64,000 nucleotides of DNA, taken from assembly GCF_011045215.1 (NCBI RefSeq), contig NZ_CP049202.1; one strand, given 5' to 3'. Origin of the DNA: Escherichia coli (GTDB lineage: Bacteria > Pseudomonadota > Gammaproteobacteria > Enterobacterales > Enterobacteriaceae). The notes below the pieces were generated by a model. The model made no database searches, was not told the origin of the DNA, and was given only the letters and a program-made list of their open reading frames with translations. This document shows, in pieces, positions 11,294 through 33,979 of this stretch (position 1 is the stretch's first letter; each line of letters begins with the position of its first letter). The position numbers and the translations under genes were made by a program.

Positions 11294-14136
11294 AATGGTC
11301 CCTTCAGTTGATTCTTTTTCTCATCAATCATTTTTTTCACAGTCTCTTCTGATGGCTCAGGTATTATCTTTTGACTTTCTCGCTCTTCATTATATTTATT
11401 ATTCTGAGATAATGCTTCTGTTTTATGGTGATTTTGTAGTTCAGAATACTGTTTTCTTACAATATTTTCCTCGCCTCGGATGCTGTTCTGAGTATCTCCG
11501 ATATTACCTCGATATTCTGTGACCATATTATCAACCTGATGTTTTACATCATCACGGATATTACTGTCCTGCGTTCTTTGATCAATAATGGCCTGATGCC
11601 CCTGATGGTCAGCAATAATATCCTGGCTGCCACCACCCGAAGGTACGCTCTCCATTCCTTTACCAATATCGCCACGGGATTCACGCCAGGCATTATCAAC
11701 ACCAGGCTGTATCTGTTCCTGCACAAAAGACCAGGCCATCGCCCGACGGCGTTCTGCAATCTCCGGCGAACTGGTATTTGTCAGAATAGCTTCGGCATCC
11801 TGCGGTGCGTGTTTCATCACATACTGTGCAAACTGTTGCGACAAATCTTCACTCATCTGCCCACTCATGCTTTCAGTACGGGATGCCATTTCAGCATATT
11901 CATGGCTGCGGGTCATATTCGTCGTGTACTGGTCGTAACTCTGTTTCGCTGAGTTCAGGGCTGCAGACAGCTGGTCCACACGGGAATCGGCATTATTGTC
12001 AGTATGGCTGCCGGACTCACTGACTTTGCGACTGGTAAAGTAATCGCTGGCCTCTTTAAAGTCCTTACTGGCTTTAGCATCGATATCATGTCGAGCATCA
12101 TGGGTAGCCCTGCTGCCACTACTTGCAGAATGTGAATCATCATCCGTTCGATCAAGACTTCCCTTAAATCCGCCTCTGACACCAACTCCACCACCAACCC
12201 CAAGAATTTTAGGTTTAATCCCCCATTCAGCATGAGCATCTGCATATCCGCCATACGAGAACTTAGAACCTGTTGATGCCAGTTCCTGAGTCGCCTGCTC
12301 ATTACTGATATTATGCGCTTTCGCATAGCTTTCCACTGCACTGCGCATACGGCTGGCCATCATGGAGTCCTGTGCGCTCATCGTGCTGTCAGCGCCACCG
12401 GTGACAGAATCACTGCTCCCCCGGTTAGAACCAAACTGACTGAGCGTATTCCAGGCACTGGCAATACTGCTGCTGAACCCATGCAGGGCGCTTTCTGCTC
12501 TGTTCGATGCCTCCCGGGCCATTTCCTGTTGTGCCGCCGCAATCTGACGCGTTGCATTGATACCGACCGGTAAACGGGACATCGCTCCGCTTGCATCCAT
12601 AACCATATTACCGTCACGGGTCTGTGTGGCGGTTGCGCCACTGCCGGTCTGGTACATCATCTGACCAAACGACGTGGTGCTGTTGGTGCTCCAGCTGAAG
12701 CCGTTCACGTTTTCCGTCTGCATGTTGCCGTAGGAGTAATTACCGTCAACCACACTGCCTGCTGCACTGGCCGTCGGACTGATAGATGAAGAGGCGAAGT
12801 GGCTGTACACACTGGAAAAACCTGCGCCAAGGCCTTTTACCATCATCCATGACAACGGGGGTATCATGACAGATATATATCCGGCAGTGGACGCCAGGTC
12901 GGAGTATTTCAGCTGTATCTGAGAGAGTTCAGAGAGCACGACCGGTGCACCATTCTGCTTTGCATAGAATGTCATGGCACTGTTCAGAATGGCATACAGC
13001 AACGGCCAGGTCTGGAACCACATCAGGGCAAACACATAGCCCTTCAGTACAGACAGCGTTAACCTGTTGAAGACCGCCGCCAGTACCAGGAGCGGGAAGA
13101 TACCAATGGTAATGCCCACCAGAATGGTCTGCACCATCGGCAGGTTTCGCATCAGCACATGACCAATGGAGACATGTGCCAGACGCTGTTTCTCCATCGA
13201 CGAGGTCGTGGCCAGACTGACCAGGCTGGCGGTATCACCGTTACGGGCTGCATTACTGGTGATACCCTCTTTCAGGGCATTCATGGTGACGTTCTGGCGC
13301 ATAATATGGCTGGCAGACTGGCTGGAGCCGTAGAAATAACTGTAACTGTCACTCACCAGTTGCCTGAATAACAGGTCCGGGTCCGGTCTGCCGCCAAATA
13401 TCTGCTGGACATAATAATGCCAGGTCTTGCCTCCGGTATTCGTATCAAAATTCAGCTTATCCTTCAGTCCGACGGATGCGTCCTTACAGGACACAAACGG
13501 CTCTGAACTGTGCAGAAAACTGTAATTATTATTCGGCACCTGACGTAAAGGGCTGGGCTGAGAAAAGATTATGGTGTACGGGTCAGAGGAGGCCATCAGG
13601 TCTTCCAGCGTGTATTTGTGATTCAGGTAAATATCACCCAGCACGCAGTTCTGGACGTAGTCCTGAAACAGATTGATGATTTCCGGATTCCGGGACAGAA
13701 AATCGGTGCTTTTCACAATCAGGTTCGCCCCGAACAGCATGCCTGTCTTGCTGTAGGTGGCGCTGTCAGGCTGAGCGAACACCATCTCATAGCCGGCCAC
13801 CATTGCATGCCCGATACGGGTCGTCAGTGAAAGTGGCATCGCCAGTCCGACCGGCACATTATCCACCCGATGGACTTTGACCAGGTCACTGTTATCAATA
13901 ATCTGCACCGACGTGCGGACATTAACCAGCAGGCTGATAAGCACAAACACGGCCACCCAGCCCAGCAAATCCATCACGTTGTGCCGCTGTACCCATATCA
14001 CGGCCACCGCGAGAACAGACAATGTGAGCGCAATTTTTTCAATGGAATCCCACGTCCTGGTTCCCATAAAGGCGGCAATGGCGTTCAGGTTATTCCGCAA
14101 CCATTCACCACCGGCAATCACATAAACTTCATTCAC
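11290..14136 (-). CDS. traG: TraG mating-pair stabilisation / entry-exclusion partner (948 aa)
   Basis: N-terminus MNEVYVIAGGEWL..., N-terminal membrane domain, large periplasmic C-terminal part; track start codon reads as GTG overlapping traH stop. Confidence 0.9.
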   Translation of the reverse strand: MNEVYVIAGGEWLRNNLNAIAAFMGTRTWDSIEKIALTLSVLAVAVIWVQRHNVMDLLGWVAVFVLISLLVNVRTSVQIIDNSDLVKVHRVDNVPVGLAMPLSLTTRIGHAMVAGYEMVFAQPDSATYSKTGMLFGANLIVKSTDFLSRNPEIINLFQDYVQNCVLGDIYLNHKYTLEDLMASSDPYTIIFSQPSPLRQVPNNNYSFLHSSEPFVSCKDASVGLKDKLNFDTNTGGKTWHYYVQQIFGGRPDPDLLFRQLVSDSYSYFYGSSQSASHIMRQNVTMNALKEGITSNAARNGDTASLVSLATTSSMEKQRLAHVSIGHVLMRNLPMVQTILVGITIGIFPLLVLAAVFNRLTLSVLKGYVFALMWFQTWPLLYAILNSAMTFYAKQNGAPVVLSELSQIQLKYSDLASTAGYISVMIPPLSWMMVKGLGAGFSSVYSHFASSSISPTASAAGSVVDGNYSYGNMQTENVNGFSWSTNSTTSFGQMMYQTGSGATATQTRDGNMVMDASGAMSRLPVGINATRQIAAAQQEMAREASNRAESALHGFSSSIASAWNTLSQFGSNRGSSDSVTGGADSTMSAQDSMMASRMRSAVESYAKAHNISNEQATQELASTGSKFSYGGYADAHAEWGIKPKILGVGGGVGVRGGFKGSLDRTDDDSHSASSGSRATHDARHDIDAKASKDFKEASDYFTSRKVSESGSHTDNNADSRVDQLSAALNSAKQSYDQYTTNMTRSHEYAEMASRTESMSGQMSEDLSQQFAQYVMKHAPQDAEAILTNTSSPEIAERRRAMAWSFVQEQIQPGVDNAWRESRGDIGKGMESVPSGGGSQDIIADHQGHQAIIDQRTQDSNIRDDVKHQVDNMVTEYRGNIGDTQNSIRGEENIVRKQYSELQNHHKTEALSQNNKYNEERESQKIIPEPSEETVKKMIDEKKNQLKGPL

Positions 14137-15509
14137 AGCGTGCTCCCTCCGAAGTGATAGTTGTTCTGGTAACGACTGAGCATGCGGGCGGAAAGCTGCT
14201 GACGCATATAGCTCATCTGACGATCGACAACCAGCAGCGCATCCTGCTGTACCTGCACCTGTGACTGAAACGCCGCAATCTGCCGGGTGGCATCATTCAT
14301 GTTGTCGTTAATATGCTCGATAACCGCTTCGTCATAATTTCCCGTGGCCACCATCGCCCGGGCCTGCTGTATCAGCTCCTGAATGTACTGCAGCAGGATG
14401 TCGTAACCGATATAGTCCGTCAGCTGGTAAATCATGCTGTTGGAAACACCGAGCATCTGCGGGTCAACCAGGTATTTGAAGACGGGGATGGTGGTACTGG
14501 AAATAAAGCCTTTTTCCTTGTCATCCAGAGGTGTGTCACTGACCGCCTTGTTCTGAATGCTGGCCAGAAGTTTAGTAATCTGAGACTTCAGTGCATTATC
14601 CCGGCTGATGGTCACCGGTGTGTCAGCCACCACTTTCAGGCATTTATCAGAATCGTTGCAGTGATAAATTTTTGCTGTGCCGCCTTCCATCATGGCCCGG
14701 ATAATTGAGCGGTCAGTGGTTCTGGCCGACAGCGGTGTGATTTCGCCGTTGGGACCAAACACCAGTGAGCCGGTCAGCGTCATCACAAACTCTTTCAGCT
14801 CTTTGTTGCCGTCAAACATTCTGTTTTTGGAAAGCGCATTCCACATGATGTTGATGTTTTTGGTCACCCGCTCCTTATCCTTGTCGCCGGCTTTATCCCT
14901 GACGCTGTCAGATTTCCCGCCAACGGTACATCCCTGCCGGGAAGCCGCCCAGTCAGCAAAAATATTGCTCTCACCGGCAATGTCCTGACAGACTTTCTGC
15001 TGGGACACCTGCGTCCGGGGGAAAAGCCCGCCGATAATCCCCTGTGCAGCCTGGCAGGAACTGAGGTTCATACTGTTAATGTCGCTTGCCATTTTCTGCA
15101 GGAAGTCTTTTGCAGTTTTGATTTCCGGCACCGTTGTCTGCAGGGCAAGGTCAAAAAAGTAACCGGCAGCATTGCTCATAATCTGCTTAACAAAACGCTG
15201 CAACTGCTCACCATTGATGTAACTGAACGAACCGAGATAGGCGTCAATGCCGCCACATCCGGCATTGATATCCGGCAGCGTCATGGAAATCAGCTGAACA
15301 TTTTTGACCTGAGTACGGGCATACAGGGAGCCACCGTAAGCATAGCCGGCGGCCTGCCCCTGCCAGACGCCCGGCTGTGTGGTATTGGAAGCAAACCCCA
15401 GCTTGTTAAAGAACTGATTCATGTCGCTGTTCACATCCGCTGACGCTGCGGGTGTGACCGTCAGTAAAGCGGCACAAAGAACCAGAAGAGGTTTAATGCG
15501 TGGCATCAT
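14133..15509 (-). CDS. traH: TraH pilus assembly protein (458 aa, signal peptide)
   Basis: 458 aa as in F TraH; N-terminal signal peptide; position upstream of traG. Confidence 0.9.
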   Translation of the reverse strand: MMPRIKPLLVLCAALLTVTPAASADVNSDMNQFFNKLGFASNTTQPGVWQGQAAGYAYGGSLYARTQVKNVQLISMTLPDINAGCGGIDAYLGSFSYINGEQLQRFVKQIMSNAAGYFFDLALQTTVPEIKTAKDFLQKMASDINSMNLSSCQAAQGIIGGLFPRTQVSQQKVCQDIAGESNIFADWAASRQGCTVGGKSDSVRDKAGDKDKERVTKNINIMWNALSKNRMFDGNKELKEFVMTLTGSLVFGPNGEITPLSARTTDRSIIRAMMEGGTAKIYHCNDSDKCLKVVADTPVTISRDNALKSQITKLLASIQNKAVSDTPLDDKEKGFISSTTIPVFKYLVDPQMLGVSNSMIYQLTDYIGYDILLQYIQELIQQARAMVATGNYDEAVIEHINDNMNDATRQIAAFQSQVQVQQDALLVVDRQMSYMRQQLSARMLSRYQNNYHFGGSTL

Positions 15510-16142: not shown

Positions 16143-16688
16143 TTATTTCGCACCTTTTTTCCCTCCGTACATCTGCAGAACGGTATCCATCCGCGCCATA
16201 AAACCAGCGGCATCCGTTGCCCCCTGTAAAAGCGGTAATGCCTCAAGCGTGTTGACGTTGACCAGGAAGGTGGTCGGTGTGGCCACCGGGATATTCGGGA
16301 AGAAGGTCTGCATTACGTCAGGTGGTGCCGGTAATGCCTCCGGAAAAGCCGAATCCCCCTGACCATCCAGGGTGTAGGGAAAAACGGAAAAACCGTACTG
16401 TTGTGCCAGCTGTTTCAGCACCGGGTCAAACTGGTGACAGTAAGGGCAATGTCCCTGCATAAACAGCACCACCTTCCAGTCGGCCAGGTTAACCTGCCTG
16501 CCGTTGCTGAGGCGGAACCAGCGGGGAGCCGTTTTTTCTGTTCTGGCTGACGTACCTGCTGCTGGTTGTGCTGGCTGCGCGGCCATACCCTGCGGATTCC
16601 AGAGTCGTTCAATTTCATCCCGGGTGGAGGCCCGCACACCTGTGGCCATTATCAACAGAATGACCGGCAGTAATTTAGTGAGAGACAT
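16143..16688 (-). CDS. trbB: TrbB periplasmic thioredoxin-like disulfide isomerase (181 aa)
   Basis: Signal peptide plus CPYC thioredoxin-type active-site motif; size and position as F TrbB. Confidence 0.75.
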   Translation of the reverse strand: MSLTKLLPVILLIMATGVRASTRDEIERLWNPQGMAAQPAQPAAGTSARTEKTAPRWFRLSNGRQVNLADWKVVLFMQGHCPYCHQFDPVLKQLAQQYGFSVFPYTLDGQGDSAFPEALPAPPDVMQTFFPNIPVATPTTFLVNVNTLEALPLLQGATDAAGFMARMDTVLQMYGGKKGAK

Positions 16689-30911: not shown

Positions 30912-31427
30912 TTAATTAATACGTGGTTTTCCCCACGCAGACGGTTTAATAACAAAAAACACACTGGATGGCTGATGATAAACATCCTGATTATCAATAT
31001 AAGGCGCTATCCATAATGCTGCCGTCTGCTCACCCGTTCTTAGCGGACGGGGAGGCGTTACCGGCACAACTGAACTGACCGGAACAACCGTTTTCACTTC
31101 CCGGGCAGCGGTAAACAGCGGGCGTGGCGCCAGCAGTTTCTGCTCCGGAAGTGCCGTCACCGCAGGTCTGCTGCCGGACGGAGTGGTCGCGGTGACGGTC
31201 TGCACCGGCATTGTCCGGAAGTTCCCTTCAGCCAGGCGCGGCAGTGATGCCGCAACCGGCTTTGCTTCTGAGGACTGCTCCAGTTTTTTGGCCTTATCAT
31301 TGGCCTGCTCCATCGTCATACAGGTATCGGATGTGGTGGCGTTACACTCAAATTCCGTACTGGTTCCGGCACAGCCGGAAAGTAATAAGGTCCCCAGCAG
31401 AGGAATAAATAAAGAAATCTGTTTCAT
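30912..31427 (-). CDS. traV: TraV outer-membrane lipoprotein (171 aa)
   Basis: Lipobox LLSGCAG; size and position as F TraV. Confidence 0.85.
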   Translation of the reverse strand: MKQISLFIPLLGTLLLSGCAGTSTEFECNATTSDTCMTMEQANDKAKKLEQSSEAKPVAASLPRLAEGNFRTMPVQTVTATTPSGSRPAVTALPEQKLLAPRPLFTAAREVKTVVPVSSVVPVTPPRPLRTGEQTAALWIAPYIDNQDVYHQPSSVFFVIKPSAWGKPRIN

Positions 31428-31675
31428 TGTCCCTCACCTTTCTCATCGCAGTTCACAAAATCATTCTTCAAATCCCTGACCGTACAGGTTTTTACAATGT
31501 CAGGATTTTCAAAAACCGTACTCCGTGATGATTTATAAACATATGCCACAATGCGTTTCCCACCCGCATCAGGTTCTGGTGCACTGACTTCACATAACGG
31601 AGGTGTTATTCCGGACTCATACAGCACCGGATAATTTATTTTTTTGACGCTGCCATCAGAAACCAGCTTATTCAT
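31424..31675 (-). CDS. trbG: TrbG-like small protein (83 aa)
   Basis: 83-aa ORF immediately upstream of traV, matching F trbG size and position. Confidence 0.45.
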   Translation of the reverse strand: MNKLVSDGSVKKINYPVLYESGITPPLCEVSAPEPDAGGKRIVAYVYKSSRSTVFENPDIVKTCTVRDLKNDFVNCDEKGEGQ

Positions 31676-32078
31676 CGAAGGGGTCCTTATATTTCTGAAT
31701 AATTCTGTCGATTAGTTCTTTCACCGGAACAGATTTTCCGCCACCGGATTGTCCGGCAACCACAATATGCCCCGGAGAAGAAAATAAACTCATCGACATA
31801 CCCTTCTTCATCACACCGACAGCAGCCATATTAAAATTGTCCGGCAATGACTCAGAACCGAATTTCTCCGGTGCAGGAAGGACGATTCTTGTGGCGCAGT
31901 TACTGAGAACAGCATGAATAAAATCATCTGACACGGTTTTACCCGGCACAGAGAGGGCTGTAATAACATTAATATTACGCATGTTCATTTTTATCTCCGT
32001 TGTTTCTGATTGTTCTGTCATCAGGGAAATAAACATGGCATTCCCTGATTTTTCCCGGCAGGGAAGTGTCTTCTGCAA
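31668..32078 (-). CDS. Hypothetical ORF with a P-loop-like GQSGGGKS motif (true start unclear)
   Basis: Walker A-like string in a small ORF between the traP-like gene and trbG; could be a trbD-region frame. Confidence 0.3.
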   Translation of the reverse strand: MQKTLPCREKSGNAMFISLMTEQSETTEIKMNMRNINVITALSVPGKTVSDDFIHAVLSNCATRIVLPAPEKFGSESLPDNFNMAAVGVMKKGMSMSLFSSPGHIVVAGQSGGGKSVPVKELIDRIIQKYKDPFDE

Positions 32079-32220
32079 GAACTTCCTTCAGACGCTCATC
32101 TGCAGTTGCCACCCGGACACATTTCATTTTTCCGGGTCGCATCGGATATTTTCCGGAGATCACCGCCAGCGAGACATACATCAGTGCCAGCGTTGCCCAT
32201 AATGCGGTGAACAGTTGCAT
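31975..32220 (-). CDS. trbD: TrbD-like small hydrophobic protein (candidate)
   Basis: Small hydrophobic ORF between the traP-like gene and trbG; assignment by position only. Confidence 0.3.
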   Translation of the reverse strand: MQLFTALWATLALMYVSLAVISGKYPMRPGKMKCVRVATADERLKEVLAEDTSLPGKIRECHVYFPDDRTIRNNGDKNEHA

Positions 32221-32226
32221 CAGAGA

Positions 32227-32565
32227 CTAGTCAGTCTCCCTGGCATATTCTGCAGCATCCCCCCGGCGAAAACCGCACGTTACAGACGGAGGCATCGCTA
32301 AATCGGAACCAAAACTGTTCGAGCAGTATCGGACCGGATACAGCCCGGCTGGCGTTCTGCCCCTTACAAACTCGATCTCCTGAACCAGCAATTTCCCCGG
32401 TGTGGTGTTGTCCTTCCATAAAACAAACAGAGCCATCAGGGCCATTGTGGCCAGTGGCAGAATGACGGCGTATTTCAGACACCAGAACAGTCCTCGCAGA
32501 ACCCGGGCGACAACATACCGGGCGGCATGGCCCGCCTGACGGGACGACGTATTATTTGCCATCAT
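32227..32565 (-). CDS. traP: TraP-like inner-membrane protein (112 aa)
   Basis: N-terminal TM; immediately downstream of traB, overlapping its stop; shorter than F TraP. Confidence 0.4.
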   Translation of the reverse strand: MMANNTSSRQAGHAARYVVARVLRGLFWCLKYAVILPLATMALMALFVLWKDNTTPGKLLVQEIEFVRGRTPAGLYPVRYCSNSFGSDLAMPPSVTCGFRRGDAAEYARETD

Positions 32566-33979
32566 TGCCCCCTCCCTGACTGCCGGACATAAACTGCTGC
32601 GGATTCAGGTTGCCCAGTTGCTTCAGCATCTGGTCAGTATTAAAGCCGTTAAGATGACTTTCAGCTGATGGCGGAACAGGAACCGGACTTTCCGGATTGT
32701 CTTCTTCCGCTCTGCTCTGCGTGCGTTCCAGCGCCATCTCTTCCACGGTTTTCAGCTGGAAGCCGTCCTGGAACACCACGGTCACTTCGTTGCCCGCACC
32801 AATCGGTATCACCGGGTGATACTGTTCGGCACGTTTGATGTAGTAGTCACTTAGCGTCTGTGCGGCTTTCGATGCGCCGCCACCGATACCCATTTTAAGG
32901 ACATCGCCGACCCCGTAAGCAGCAGTGGCACCCAGCCCGACAGCCGGCTGGGAGGCGCGCTCCATTCCCTGACCGATACCGTCAACAAATCCCGCGCCCC
33001 ATGCCCAGCCGAGGATTTTGCCGTTACGCATCACCACTTCGCCCTTGATACCGTTTTTACCCCGGAAGCTGACATGCCCCTTAATCGGCATATCAATGGT
33101 TTTGCCGTCCTTCAGGCAGCTGATATTGCGGGTGCGTACAATGGCACGCTCACTGGACACATCCCCCCAGGCTTCCAGACCCACAAAACATCCCGTTGCG
33201 TCATACGTCTTGCTGTTCGGCATTTCCACCAGGCCGGTGATACGCAGCTGCATCGGCACCGTGGATTCATTACCGGTGACAGAGGCATTGGCATCAGCCC
33301 CTTCAATCAGCATGGCTTTCGCAAAACTTCCTGACGGAATGTACGGCAGTGATGGTCCCTGTTTTCCCTCATTACGGGTAAACACCTTACGCTGTATCCG
33401 GTTAGGTACCGGCACAGACTGGTACGTCACCTGTGGTGGTGGCGTGACACCATTCCCGGGATAAAACGCCGTCGGCGGTGGAACAGCAACGCTGCCCTGC
33501 GGCGGGAAGGATACGGGGGTGTTTCCTGGCTGTGGTTCGCCTTCCGGGCCGGGCGGTGAGGCAGGCATCTGCGGTACAGGCTCACCGGTCGCCGTGACGG
33601 GATTAGCACCCAGGGCTTTTACCTGCTCTGCCAGGGCGGCATTGTCCTGTCCCAGCTTTTCAATACGACGCTGGTCATCACCGCGCTGTTTGTTCAGAAC
33701 ATCCAGCTCACGACGGATTTCCTCATACTGCTTCTGCATCTGCGCTGCCGTCACCTGCATCTCGGTGGTGGCATGCTGACGCACCTTGTCATCAAAGGTC
33801 GTATCCACCACACCGGTCATATCCGGCACAGGCTCCTGTTCAGCCACGGTTTCACCGTTACCGGACATGTCCACATCAGACAGATACAGTGCCCCACCAA
33901 TCGCGGAGGCTGTACCGACAACCACAATCCCCAGCCACAGGTACTGCTTGCGTTTCACAATGGTATTGATACTGGCCAT
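32552..33979 (-). CDS. traB: TraB (VirB10-like), 475 aa
   Basis: 475 aa as in F; N-terminal TM, coiled coil, Pro-rich linker, conserved C-terminal domain. Confidence 0.9.
   Translation of the reverse strand: MASINTIVKRKQYLWLGIVVVGTASAIGGALYLSDVDMSGNGETVAEQEPVPDMTGVVDTTFDDKVRQHATTEMQVTAAQMQKQYEEIRRELDVLNKQRGDDQRRIEKLGQDNAALAEQVKALGANPVTATGEPVPQMPASPPGPEGEPQPGNTPVSFPPQGSVAVPPPTAFYPGNGVTPPPQVTYQSVPVPNRIQRKVFTRNEGKQGPSLPYIPSGSFAKAMLIEGADANASVTGNESTVPMQLRITGLVEMPNSKTYDATGCFVGLEAWGDVSSERAIVRTRNISCLKDGKTIDMPIKGHVSFRGKNGIKGEVVMRNGKILGWAWGAGFVDGIGQGMERASQPAVGLGATAAYGVGDVLKMGIGGGASKAAQTLSDYYIKRAEQYHPVIPIGAGNEVTVVFQDGFQLKTVEEMALERTQSRAEEDNPESPVPVPPSAESHLNGFNTDQMLKQLGNLNPQQFMSGSQGGGNDGK

Follow-up and report, generated by a model that had tools for sequence, protein, structure and literature searches.

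The open reading frame described here, which comprises 136 codons, starts with TTG and encodes GHIVVAGQSGGGKSVPV, is located on the minus strand of an F-like tra operon in the window, i.e., the stretch of 64,000 nucleotides of an Escherichia coli contig (NZ_CP049202.1) that was analyzed as a whole. The genes of this operon are arranged in the order traB, traP and trbD, followed by trbG, traV, traR, traC and, further on, traD and traI, and the frame occupies the position of trbD, directly after traP and before trbG and traV, on the same strand. The protein encoded from the ATG at position 31988 matches the NCBIfam TrbD equivalog model NF010282 over the full length of both (230.7 bits against a cutoff of 194; protein 1-106 aligned with model 1-106) as well as the Pfam family PF10894 (DUF2689; 34.5-38.7 bits against a cutoff of 25), and is identical to the RefSeq protein WP_250318794.1. 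Moreover, pBCE049-1, the closest plasmid in PLSDB (99.5% identity over 1.2 kb), has a 321-nt gene annotated as "conjugal transfer protein TrbD" at exactly the matching place. The first-pass annotation described the frame as overlapping a trbD-like frame; with these matches, the frame is trbD itself, a small accessory gene of IncF/F-like tra operons that is already known and annotated. The trbD of that annotation was probably the TrbD of the prototype plasmid F, a truncated allele of about 65 amino acids. Compared with the TrbD proteins of other IncF plasmids (NF010282/PRK13724; PF10894, DUF2689), the window protein is the same protein in the same position, with D103 where most have E. The coordinates of the features of this locus are given in Table 1.

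Table 1. Features of the trbD locus and its surroundings (positions in the window).
Feature	Position	Strand	Basis or remark
traC	26261-28906	-	ATPase gene of the tra operon
traV	30912-31427	-	Lipoprotein gene, next after trbG; NF010293, 291 bits
trbG	31424-31675	-	Downstream neighbor of trbD; NF010307 equivalog, 198.7 bits, cutoff 161
ORF of 136 codons, TTG start	31668-32078	-	ORF list; trbD plus 30 upstream in-frame codons over the traP 3' end
trbD coding sequence, 106 codons and TAA	31668-31988	-	NF010282 equivalog; pBCE049-1 annotation; WP_250318794.1
Segment of 104 bp with the whole P-loop region	31700-31803	-	Missing, with a shift of frame, from F and many relatives; alignment with NC_002483
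TrbD residues 72-96 (strand, P-loop, helix)	31701-31775	-	Resembles the Walker A regions of VirB4 (TrwK 444-468) and TraC (482-507)
Walker A GQSGGGKS, TrbD residues 79-86	31731-31754	-	Pattern scan; 35-sequence alignment; 120 cluster representatives
TrbD residues 9-41, ITALSVPGKTVSDDFIHAVLSNCATRIVLPAPE	31866-31964	-	Resembles the part of VirB4 behind Walker B (TrwK 684-716, ...FATQ...CATYIFLANPK)
traP	31975-32565	-	Upstream neighbor of trbD; two ORFs matching TraP profile positions 1-113 and 117-197; in-frame TAG at 32227-32229
Shine-Dalgarno-like GGAG	31995-31998	-	6 nt 5' of the trbD ATG; direct sequence reading
traB	32552-33979	-	tra operon

The TrbD model starts at residue 31 of the 136-residue frame (model 1-106 corresponds to frame residues 31-136), and a Shine-Dalgarno-like sequence is found at the expected side of the ATG (ACGGAGATAAAAATGAACATG); the translated gene is likely the 106-codon version rather than the whole open reading frame. 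The annotated starts of TrbD vary among database records, with products of 106, 117 or 122 amino acids. The orientation of trbD is that of traB, traP, trbG, traV and traC, as had been noted in the first-pass annotation, and both its position and the gene order are the same in 15 other plasmids. The gene overlaps the stop of traP by 14 nt and the start of trbG by 8 nt. Given these overlaps of a few bases with both neighbors, coupled translation on the long tra transcript is probable for trbD.

Both neighborhoods of trbD show variation of their own. In the window plasmid, traP is interrupted by an amber codon after codon 112, where pBCE049-1 has CAG, and traP is intact in 15 of the 15 other sampled plasmids; judging from this difference, the window plasmid probably makes a truncated form of the pilus-stabilizing protein TraP. 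On the other side, the trbD-traV junction (window 31424-31700; L002, L003, L012, L013 and L014 among the sampled plasmids) is a variable slot. It contains trbG in the window and in F and a gene for a hypothetical protein of 170 amino acids in pMccB17-type plasmids (L014), and it is empty in R100-type plasmids. The ~37 nt at the 3' end of R100-type trbD align with the terminal ~37 nt of trbG, and both genes end with ...KGEGQ* over the ribosome-binding site of traV, as if an insertion into, or a deletion from, an ancestral 3' end of trbD had involved trbG together with a new tail for trbD.

The P-loop-like motif reported for this frame in the first-pass annotation is real: TrbD contains a GxxxxGK[ST] match within the stretch SPGHIVVAGQSGGGKSVPVKELIDRIIQ. 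Taken alone, the pattern is not beyond chance in the window. A scan of the six frames yields 8 matches against 2.3 +/- 1.7 in shuffled sequences; three of these are in genuine ATPases (TraI, TraD and TraC), and another four seem to be accidental. Among the latter, GCTVGGKS at 14910-14933 (minus strand) is located in a large open reading frame of the tra region (458 amino acids, 14133-15509) and is not preceded by a hydrophobic strand, whereas the other three are found in short frames of 26-71 codons, at 16371, 32685 and 53020. The trbD match differs from the accidental ones in its context: the loop is preceded by a hydrophobic strand (HIVVAG) and followed by the helix-like VKELIDRII, i.e., the succession of strand, Walker A and helix that is typical of P-loop NTPases (HIVVAGQSGGGKSVPVKELIDRII); none of the accidental matches has such flanks.

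The motif is conserved among TrbD proteins. A word-indexed search retrieved 210 homologs, all of them TrbD/DUF2689 proteins of Enterobacteriaceae. Of the cluster representatives listed (120), 100 retain GxxxxGK[ST], and two divergent forms of the motif, GHIVVAGQSGGGKS and GNTVVSGQPCAGKT, can be recognized among them. The C-terminal form GHIVVAGQSGGGKSVPVKELIDRIIQKYKEPFDE is characteristic of plasmids in which trbG follows trbD, as in the window, and the form GNTVVSGQPCAGKTNLTAELISAVVGNNKKGEGQ of R100-type plasmids in which trbD abuts traV. The alignment of 35 family members shows no variation at G84 and K85 and almost none at G73, V76, G79 and Q80. The two allele classes are separated by a synonymous divergence (dS) of 0.16 in codons 1-72 and ~1.5 in codons 73-106, with a recombination or mosaic breakpoint at ~31775 (codon ~72). 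In the diverged portion, 11 of the 34 residues are identical between the classes (counted from the sequences), and the residues that survive are those that define the strand, the P-loop and the helix; both classes keep an open frame of 106 codons. Because the motif is kept across alleles that have diverged to such an extent, the chance match envisaged in the first-pass annotation is unlikely. Together with the VirB4 comparisons described below, this indicates that the Walker A motif of TrbD is inherited rather than accidental; inheritance from an ATPase would account for its textbook context.

The likely source of the motif is suggested by profile comparisons with VirB4-type ATPases. An alignment of the VirB4 ATPase domain was constructed from 106 sequences with 44-80% identity to TrwK of R388 and compared with TrbD using hhalign. 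The top match aligns TrbD 72-96 with TrwK 444-468, i.e., the Walker A region (E-value 3e-8 to 2e-7, Prob 94-95%), and none of 60 column shuffles reached its score. The N-terminal half of TrbD also finds a counterpart: the top match of residues 9-41 is TrwK 684-716, the segment with the FATQ...CAT.IFLPNP signature that follows Walker B (FMYVFDEFW, located just ahead of it at 649-657). This similarity is modest (E-value 4e-4 to 9e-4, Prob 24-36%, 24% identity), and 0 of 1000 column shuffles attained the score. The two segments come in the order opposite to that in VirB4, so that the collinear arrangement of Walker A, Walker B and FATQ/T.IFLPNP is not found in TrbD. When the family profile was compared with the TraC sequence of the window plasmid, TrbD 54-99 aligned with TraC 466-507 (E-value 6.9e-5, probability 63%), whereas the match to TraD of the same plasmid was far weaker (E-value 0.033). 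The best local alignment of the N-terminal half with the resident F-type TraC falls at the homologous place (TraC 748-765) and is not significant (E-value 0.44).

The reciprocal search leads to the same gene. When hidden Markov models of the two VirB4 segments were run against the 1244 stop-to-stop open reading frames of at least 30 amino acids in the six frames of the window, the trbD frame ranked first with the model of the segment after Walker B (E-value 0.028; the next frame, 2.3) and second with the Walker A model, behind TraC and ahead of TraD and TraI. Thus, hhalign, the shuffles and the reciprocal HMM search all support local homology, that is, descent of the two TrbD segments from the corresponding segments of the VirB4/TraC core. 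Searches of curated libraries are compatible with this picture, with the reservation that all matches outside the TrbD family are below the thresholds of the respective models. The Pfam profile FtsK_SpoIIIE matches at an E-value of 3e-4, below its gathering score, with TrbD 56-98 aligned to profile positions 24-65 and 27 of 35 family members giving the match; A32, HerA/DUF87 and TrwB come next, so that the best matches outside the family all belong to the FtsK/HerA/A32/TrwB group. It is from this group that type IV secretion draws its ATPases. The NCBIfam model TIGR00929 (VirB4_CagE) matches with an E-value of 1e-3 through the other half of the protein (TrbD 7-42 to positions 669-704 of 792; 26 of 35 members), and the Walker A of F-type TraC, TraD of SXT and TrbE of RP4 are among the further matches.

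BLASTP of TrbD against TraC and TraD of the window plasmid yielded nothing significant, and searches of PDB sequences with the single sequence and with the family profile returned only generic, non-significant P-loop matches (ATP synthase beta, EccC and FtsK). Two candidate extensions of the homology were rejected. The linker 43-71 (LPDNFNM...) was compared with the "P.YFNFH" stretch upstream of Walker A in VirB4, and the resulting score (12.0) was equalled by 113 of 400 shuffles. An internal duplication, with SVPGKT in the N-terminal half as a second, degenerate Walker A, did not hold up either, since the pairwise comparison with TraC 475-526 was at chance level and the alternative hhalign alignment had E-values of 0.25-0.45. 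HMMER, run exhaustively against 1.84 billion representatives, retrieved 42 proteins, mostly truncated TrbD variants, and no rearrangement intermediate. The single long protein among them (P0155, 1024 amino acids) is a repeat-rich surface protein that was matched through low-complexity "GTITVSGGG" repeats and is spurious. The single distant full-length homolog (P0149, 112 amino acids), encoded by gene 269-607 of a contig of 1108 bp (L018, Logan SRR33321306), is 22% identical to R100-type TrbD and keeps the strand and helix pattern, with KGS in place of GKS.

The VirB4/TraC ATPases (TIGR00929; TrwK of R388 and TraC of F) consist of ~800-880 residues compared with the 106 of TrbD, in which the two segments are swapped and Walker B, the N-terminal domain and the rest of the core are missing. 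As a whole protein, TrbD falls far short of membership in these families (17.3 bits against 643 for TIGR00929 and 9.9 against 567 for TIGR02746). In the case of the VirD4/TraD coupling proteins and FtsK/SpoIIIE (PF01580, PF10412), the likeness is limited to the region just before and at Walker A (TrwB 114-143, 43% identity over 30 columns, E-value ~1e-4); the N-terminal half of TrbD has no counterpart in TrwB (E-value 0.31), and all other parts of the VirD4/FtsK-type proteins are absent from TrbD.

No Walker B motif (hhhhD[DE]) is present in TrbD, even with relaxed hydrophobic classes, nor is there a predicted membrane segment (the maximum hydropathy over 19 residues is 0.93). A complete five-stranded core requires at least ~150 residues; with two matched VirB4 segments, TrbD is about one-third shorter than the smallest complete P-loop domains. 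The remark of the first-pass annotation that the product is far too small for a canonical ATPase is borne out by its length. As far as can be judged from the sequence, TrbD cannot be an autonomous ATPase because Walker B, the catalytic glutamate and most of the ATPase core are missing, and catalysis appears to have been lost. Two AlphaFold runs, with alignments of 35 and 54 sequences and either allele placed first, gave no confident fold (pLDDT 38 and 43); both low-confidence models have helices at ~21-30 and ~88-99, where the VirB4 comparison puts them.

The gene is under weak purifying selection. Pairwise Nei-Gojobori estimates for intact alleles in a small sample of eight plasmids give a median dN/dS of 0.46 for trbD, 0.45 for traP and 0.07 for the 3' end of traB; traP is a non-essential gene and traB is an essential one. 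For the first-pass annotation, a lack of amino-acid conservation of the frame in related plasmids would refute the observation; the outcome is mixed. Intact alleles show such conservation, whereas in other plasmids the motif is not preserved at all, with the segment that contains it deleted in F and about one-third of the relatives and an amber stop located upstream of it in other sampled alleles. The deletion in F (NC_002483) removes TrbD residues ~62-97 relative to the window and leaves a product of 63 amino acids as annotated (65 from an upstream ATG) that ends with ...VGVMKNSEI. Thus, F encodes a truncated, P-loop-less TrbD, in contrast to the intact protein of the trbG-linked type in the window. 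The 104-bp deletion is present at L004, L010, L011 and L015; besides F, three sampled plasmids (L010, L011 and L015) have this allele, one of which comes from Klebsiella. In three further plasmids, trbD contains an amber stop, at codon 46 (GAG to TAG; L006 and L017) or codon 62 (AAG to TAG; L007). These point knock-outs and the traP mutation in the window are all amber codons. On a larger scale, a megablast coverage estimate indicates that among 3091 plasmids with the 5' part of trbD, ~885 have the window-type P-loop segment, ~1138 the R100-type segment and ~35% neither. Over the five best PLSDB matches that are 100% identical to the P-loop segment, there is no protein-coding annotation of the segment.

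Repeated, independent knock-outs of trbD have therefore occurred among other IncF plasmids that are conjugative. F is the prototype of efficient self-transmissible conjugative plasmids; it is typed as conjugative, as are 3445 of the 3607 plasmids that match the region (>95%). Because F conjugates efficiently with the segment deleted, the P-loop of TrbD is not needed for conjugation.

In our assessment, these observations are probably explained by trbD being a real, translated accessory gene that encodes what is left of a VirB4-type ATPase core after rearrangement, weakly selected and dispensable, with an inherited, non-catalytic P-loop. Among the three origins proposed in the first-pass annotation, this amounts to favoring the remnant of an ATPase gene, on the strength of the VirB4 profile comparisons, the shuffles and the reciprocal search. 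TrbD would be built of two short pieces of a VirB4-type core joined in the order opposite to that of the parent, residues 9-41 corresponding to the strand-helix-strand unit after Walker B and residues 72-96 to the Walker A unit of strand, P-loop and helix. Such a protein might have originated from a VirB4-like gene that was rearranged or partially duplicated; the swapped order would be that found where two copies of the ATPase core meet in an internal tandem duplication, the flanks on both sides of this junction being subsequently lost. Any remaining role of TrbD would be structural or docking at most. There are, however, difficulties with this scenario. The swapped order requires a multi-step rearrangement, no intermediate of which turned up among the 1.84 billion representatives; the similarity of the N-terminal half is modest and does not reach significance against the resident TraC; and, given the lack of a confident AlphaFold fold, the structural reading stays a prediction. 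Furthermore, the persistence of GK[ST], together with a dN/dS below 1, suggests that some function is left, so that "relic" may understate the case; the loss of GK[ST] in the distant homolog fits non-catalysis, yet this is a single sequence.

Those same signs of constraint could be read as evidence that TrbD is a working mini P-loop protein that binds nucleotide or phosphate, or docks on the TraC/TraD hexamer via its VirB4-derived strands, and conditionally tunes pilus assembly or DNA transfer. In this connection, no part of the diverged C-terminal region is better conserved than GK[ST] with the flanking strand and helix, dN/dS is ~0.45 rather than 1, both strongly diverged allele classes keep the frame open, and the overlaps with the neighboring genes suggest that trbD is translated. 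The absence of the segment from F and about one-third of the trbD-bearing plasmids, the additional knock-outs by amber alleles in a population that is almost entirely typed as conjugative, the missing Walker B, the lack of a confident fold, the loss of GK[ST] in the distant homolog and the silence of the searched literature on any function weigh against this possibility, which we regard as unlikely on the available sequences. A more specific version, which would make TrbD a natural permuted "half ATPase" captured at the internal-tandem-duplication junction of an ancestral VirB4 gene and domesticated to bind nucleotide or to plug into the TraC/TraD hexamer as a modulator of F-type conjugation, is speculative and seems rather improbable. 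The strands of the ASCE ATPase sheet are ordered 5-1-4-3-2, and the TrbD pieces would correspond to three neighboring strands, 5, 1 and 4. Chance or convergence, with a Walker A and a VirB4-like stretch in an unrelated small protein, appears very unlikely. The bare pattern is expected ~2-4 times per window, the curated-library matches are all sub-threshold, BLASTP against TraC and TraD and the PDB searches are not significant, and the linker shows no similarity, all of which would suit such an explanation; against it, two separate segments each have the corresponding VirB4 motif as the top match at scores that no shuffle reaches, the reciprocal search singles out the trbD frame, and the best Pfam matches fall in the one group of ATPases that type IV secretion employs, with trbD located in a type IV secretion operon. 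Finally, the first-pass annotation allowed for a mis-framed region. The start of the 136-residue version at a TTG inside traP and the differing lengths of the annotated products might suggest an artefact of a mis-framed or non-coding region; with a curated equivalog matched over its full length, over 200 homologous proteins, dN/dS well below 1, the Shine-Dalgarno sequence and the operon-style overlaps, the odds of this are negligible, and mis-framing is excluded.

In the literature searched, trbD appears in gene lists only and DUF2689 is not mentioned, with no experiments on TrbD and no account of a function, the motif or an origin; the older literature on the F transfer region lies outside this scope. 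The origin of TrbD from an ATPase fragment thus seems to be undocumented in the literature covered. Laboratory-made minimal strand-P-loop-helix "prototype" proteins are reportedly very small polypeptides with a single Walker A element; TrbD resembles these prototypes in size and in the single Walker A but is natural, would be derived by reduction and has no confident predicted fold.

With regard to annotation, the "P-loop ORF" is settled as trbD rather than a hidden ATPase or an overlapping gene, and the Walker A of TrbD is unfit as a predictor of ATPase activity. The gene itself was already known, and the added insight is modest and evolutionary. Altogether, the comparisons suggest that TrbD, listed as a protein of unknown function (DUF2689), is a piece of a VirB4-type motor that was rearranged, persists under weak selection and is being lost repeatedly, as in the F deletion and the amber alleles. 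Should the intact protein bind nucleotide or TraC, it would be a natural example of a minimal P-loop element that was retained when a motor protein broke up, and it might modulate F-type conjugation in the many resistance plasmids that have kept TrbD.
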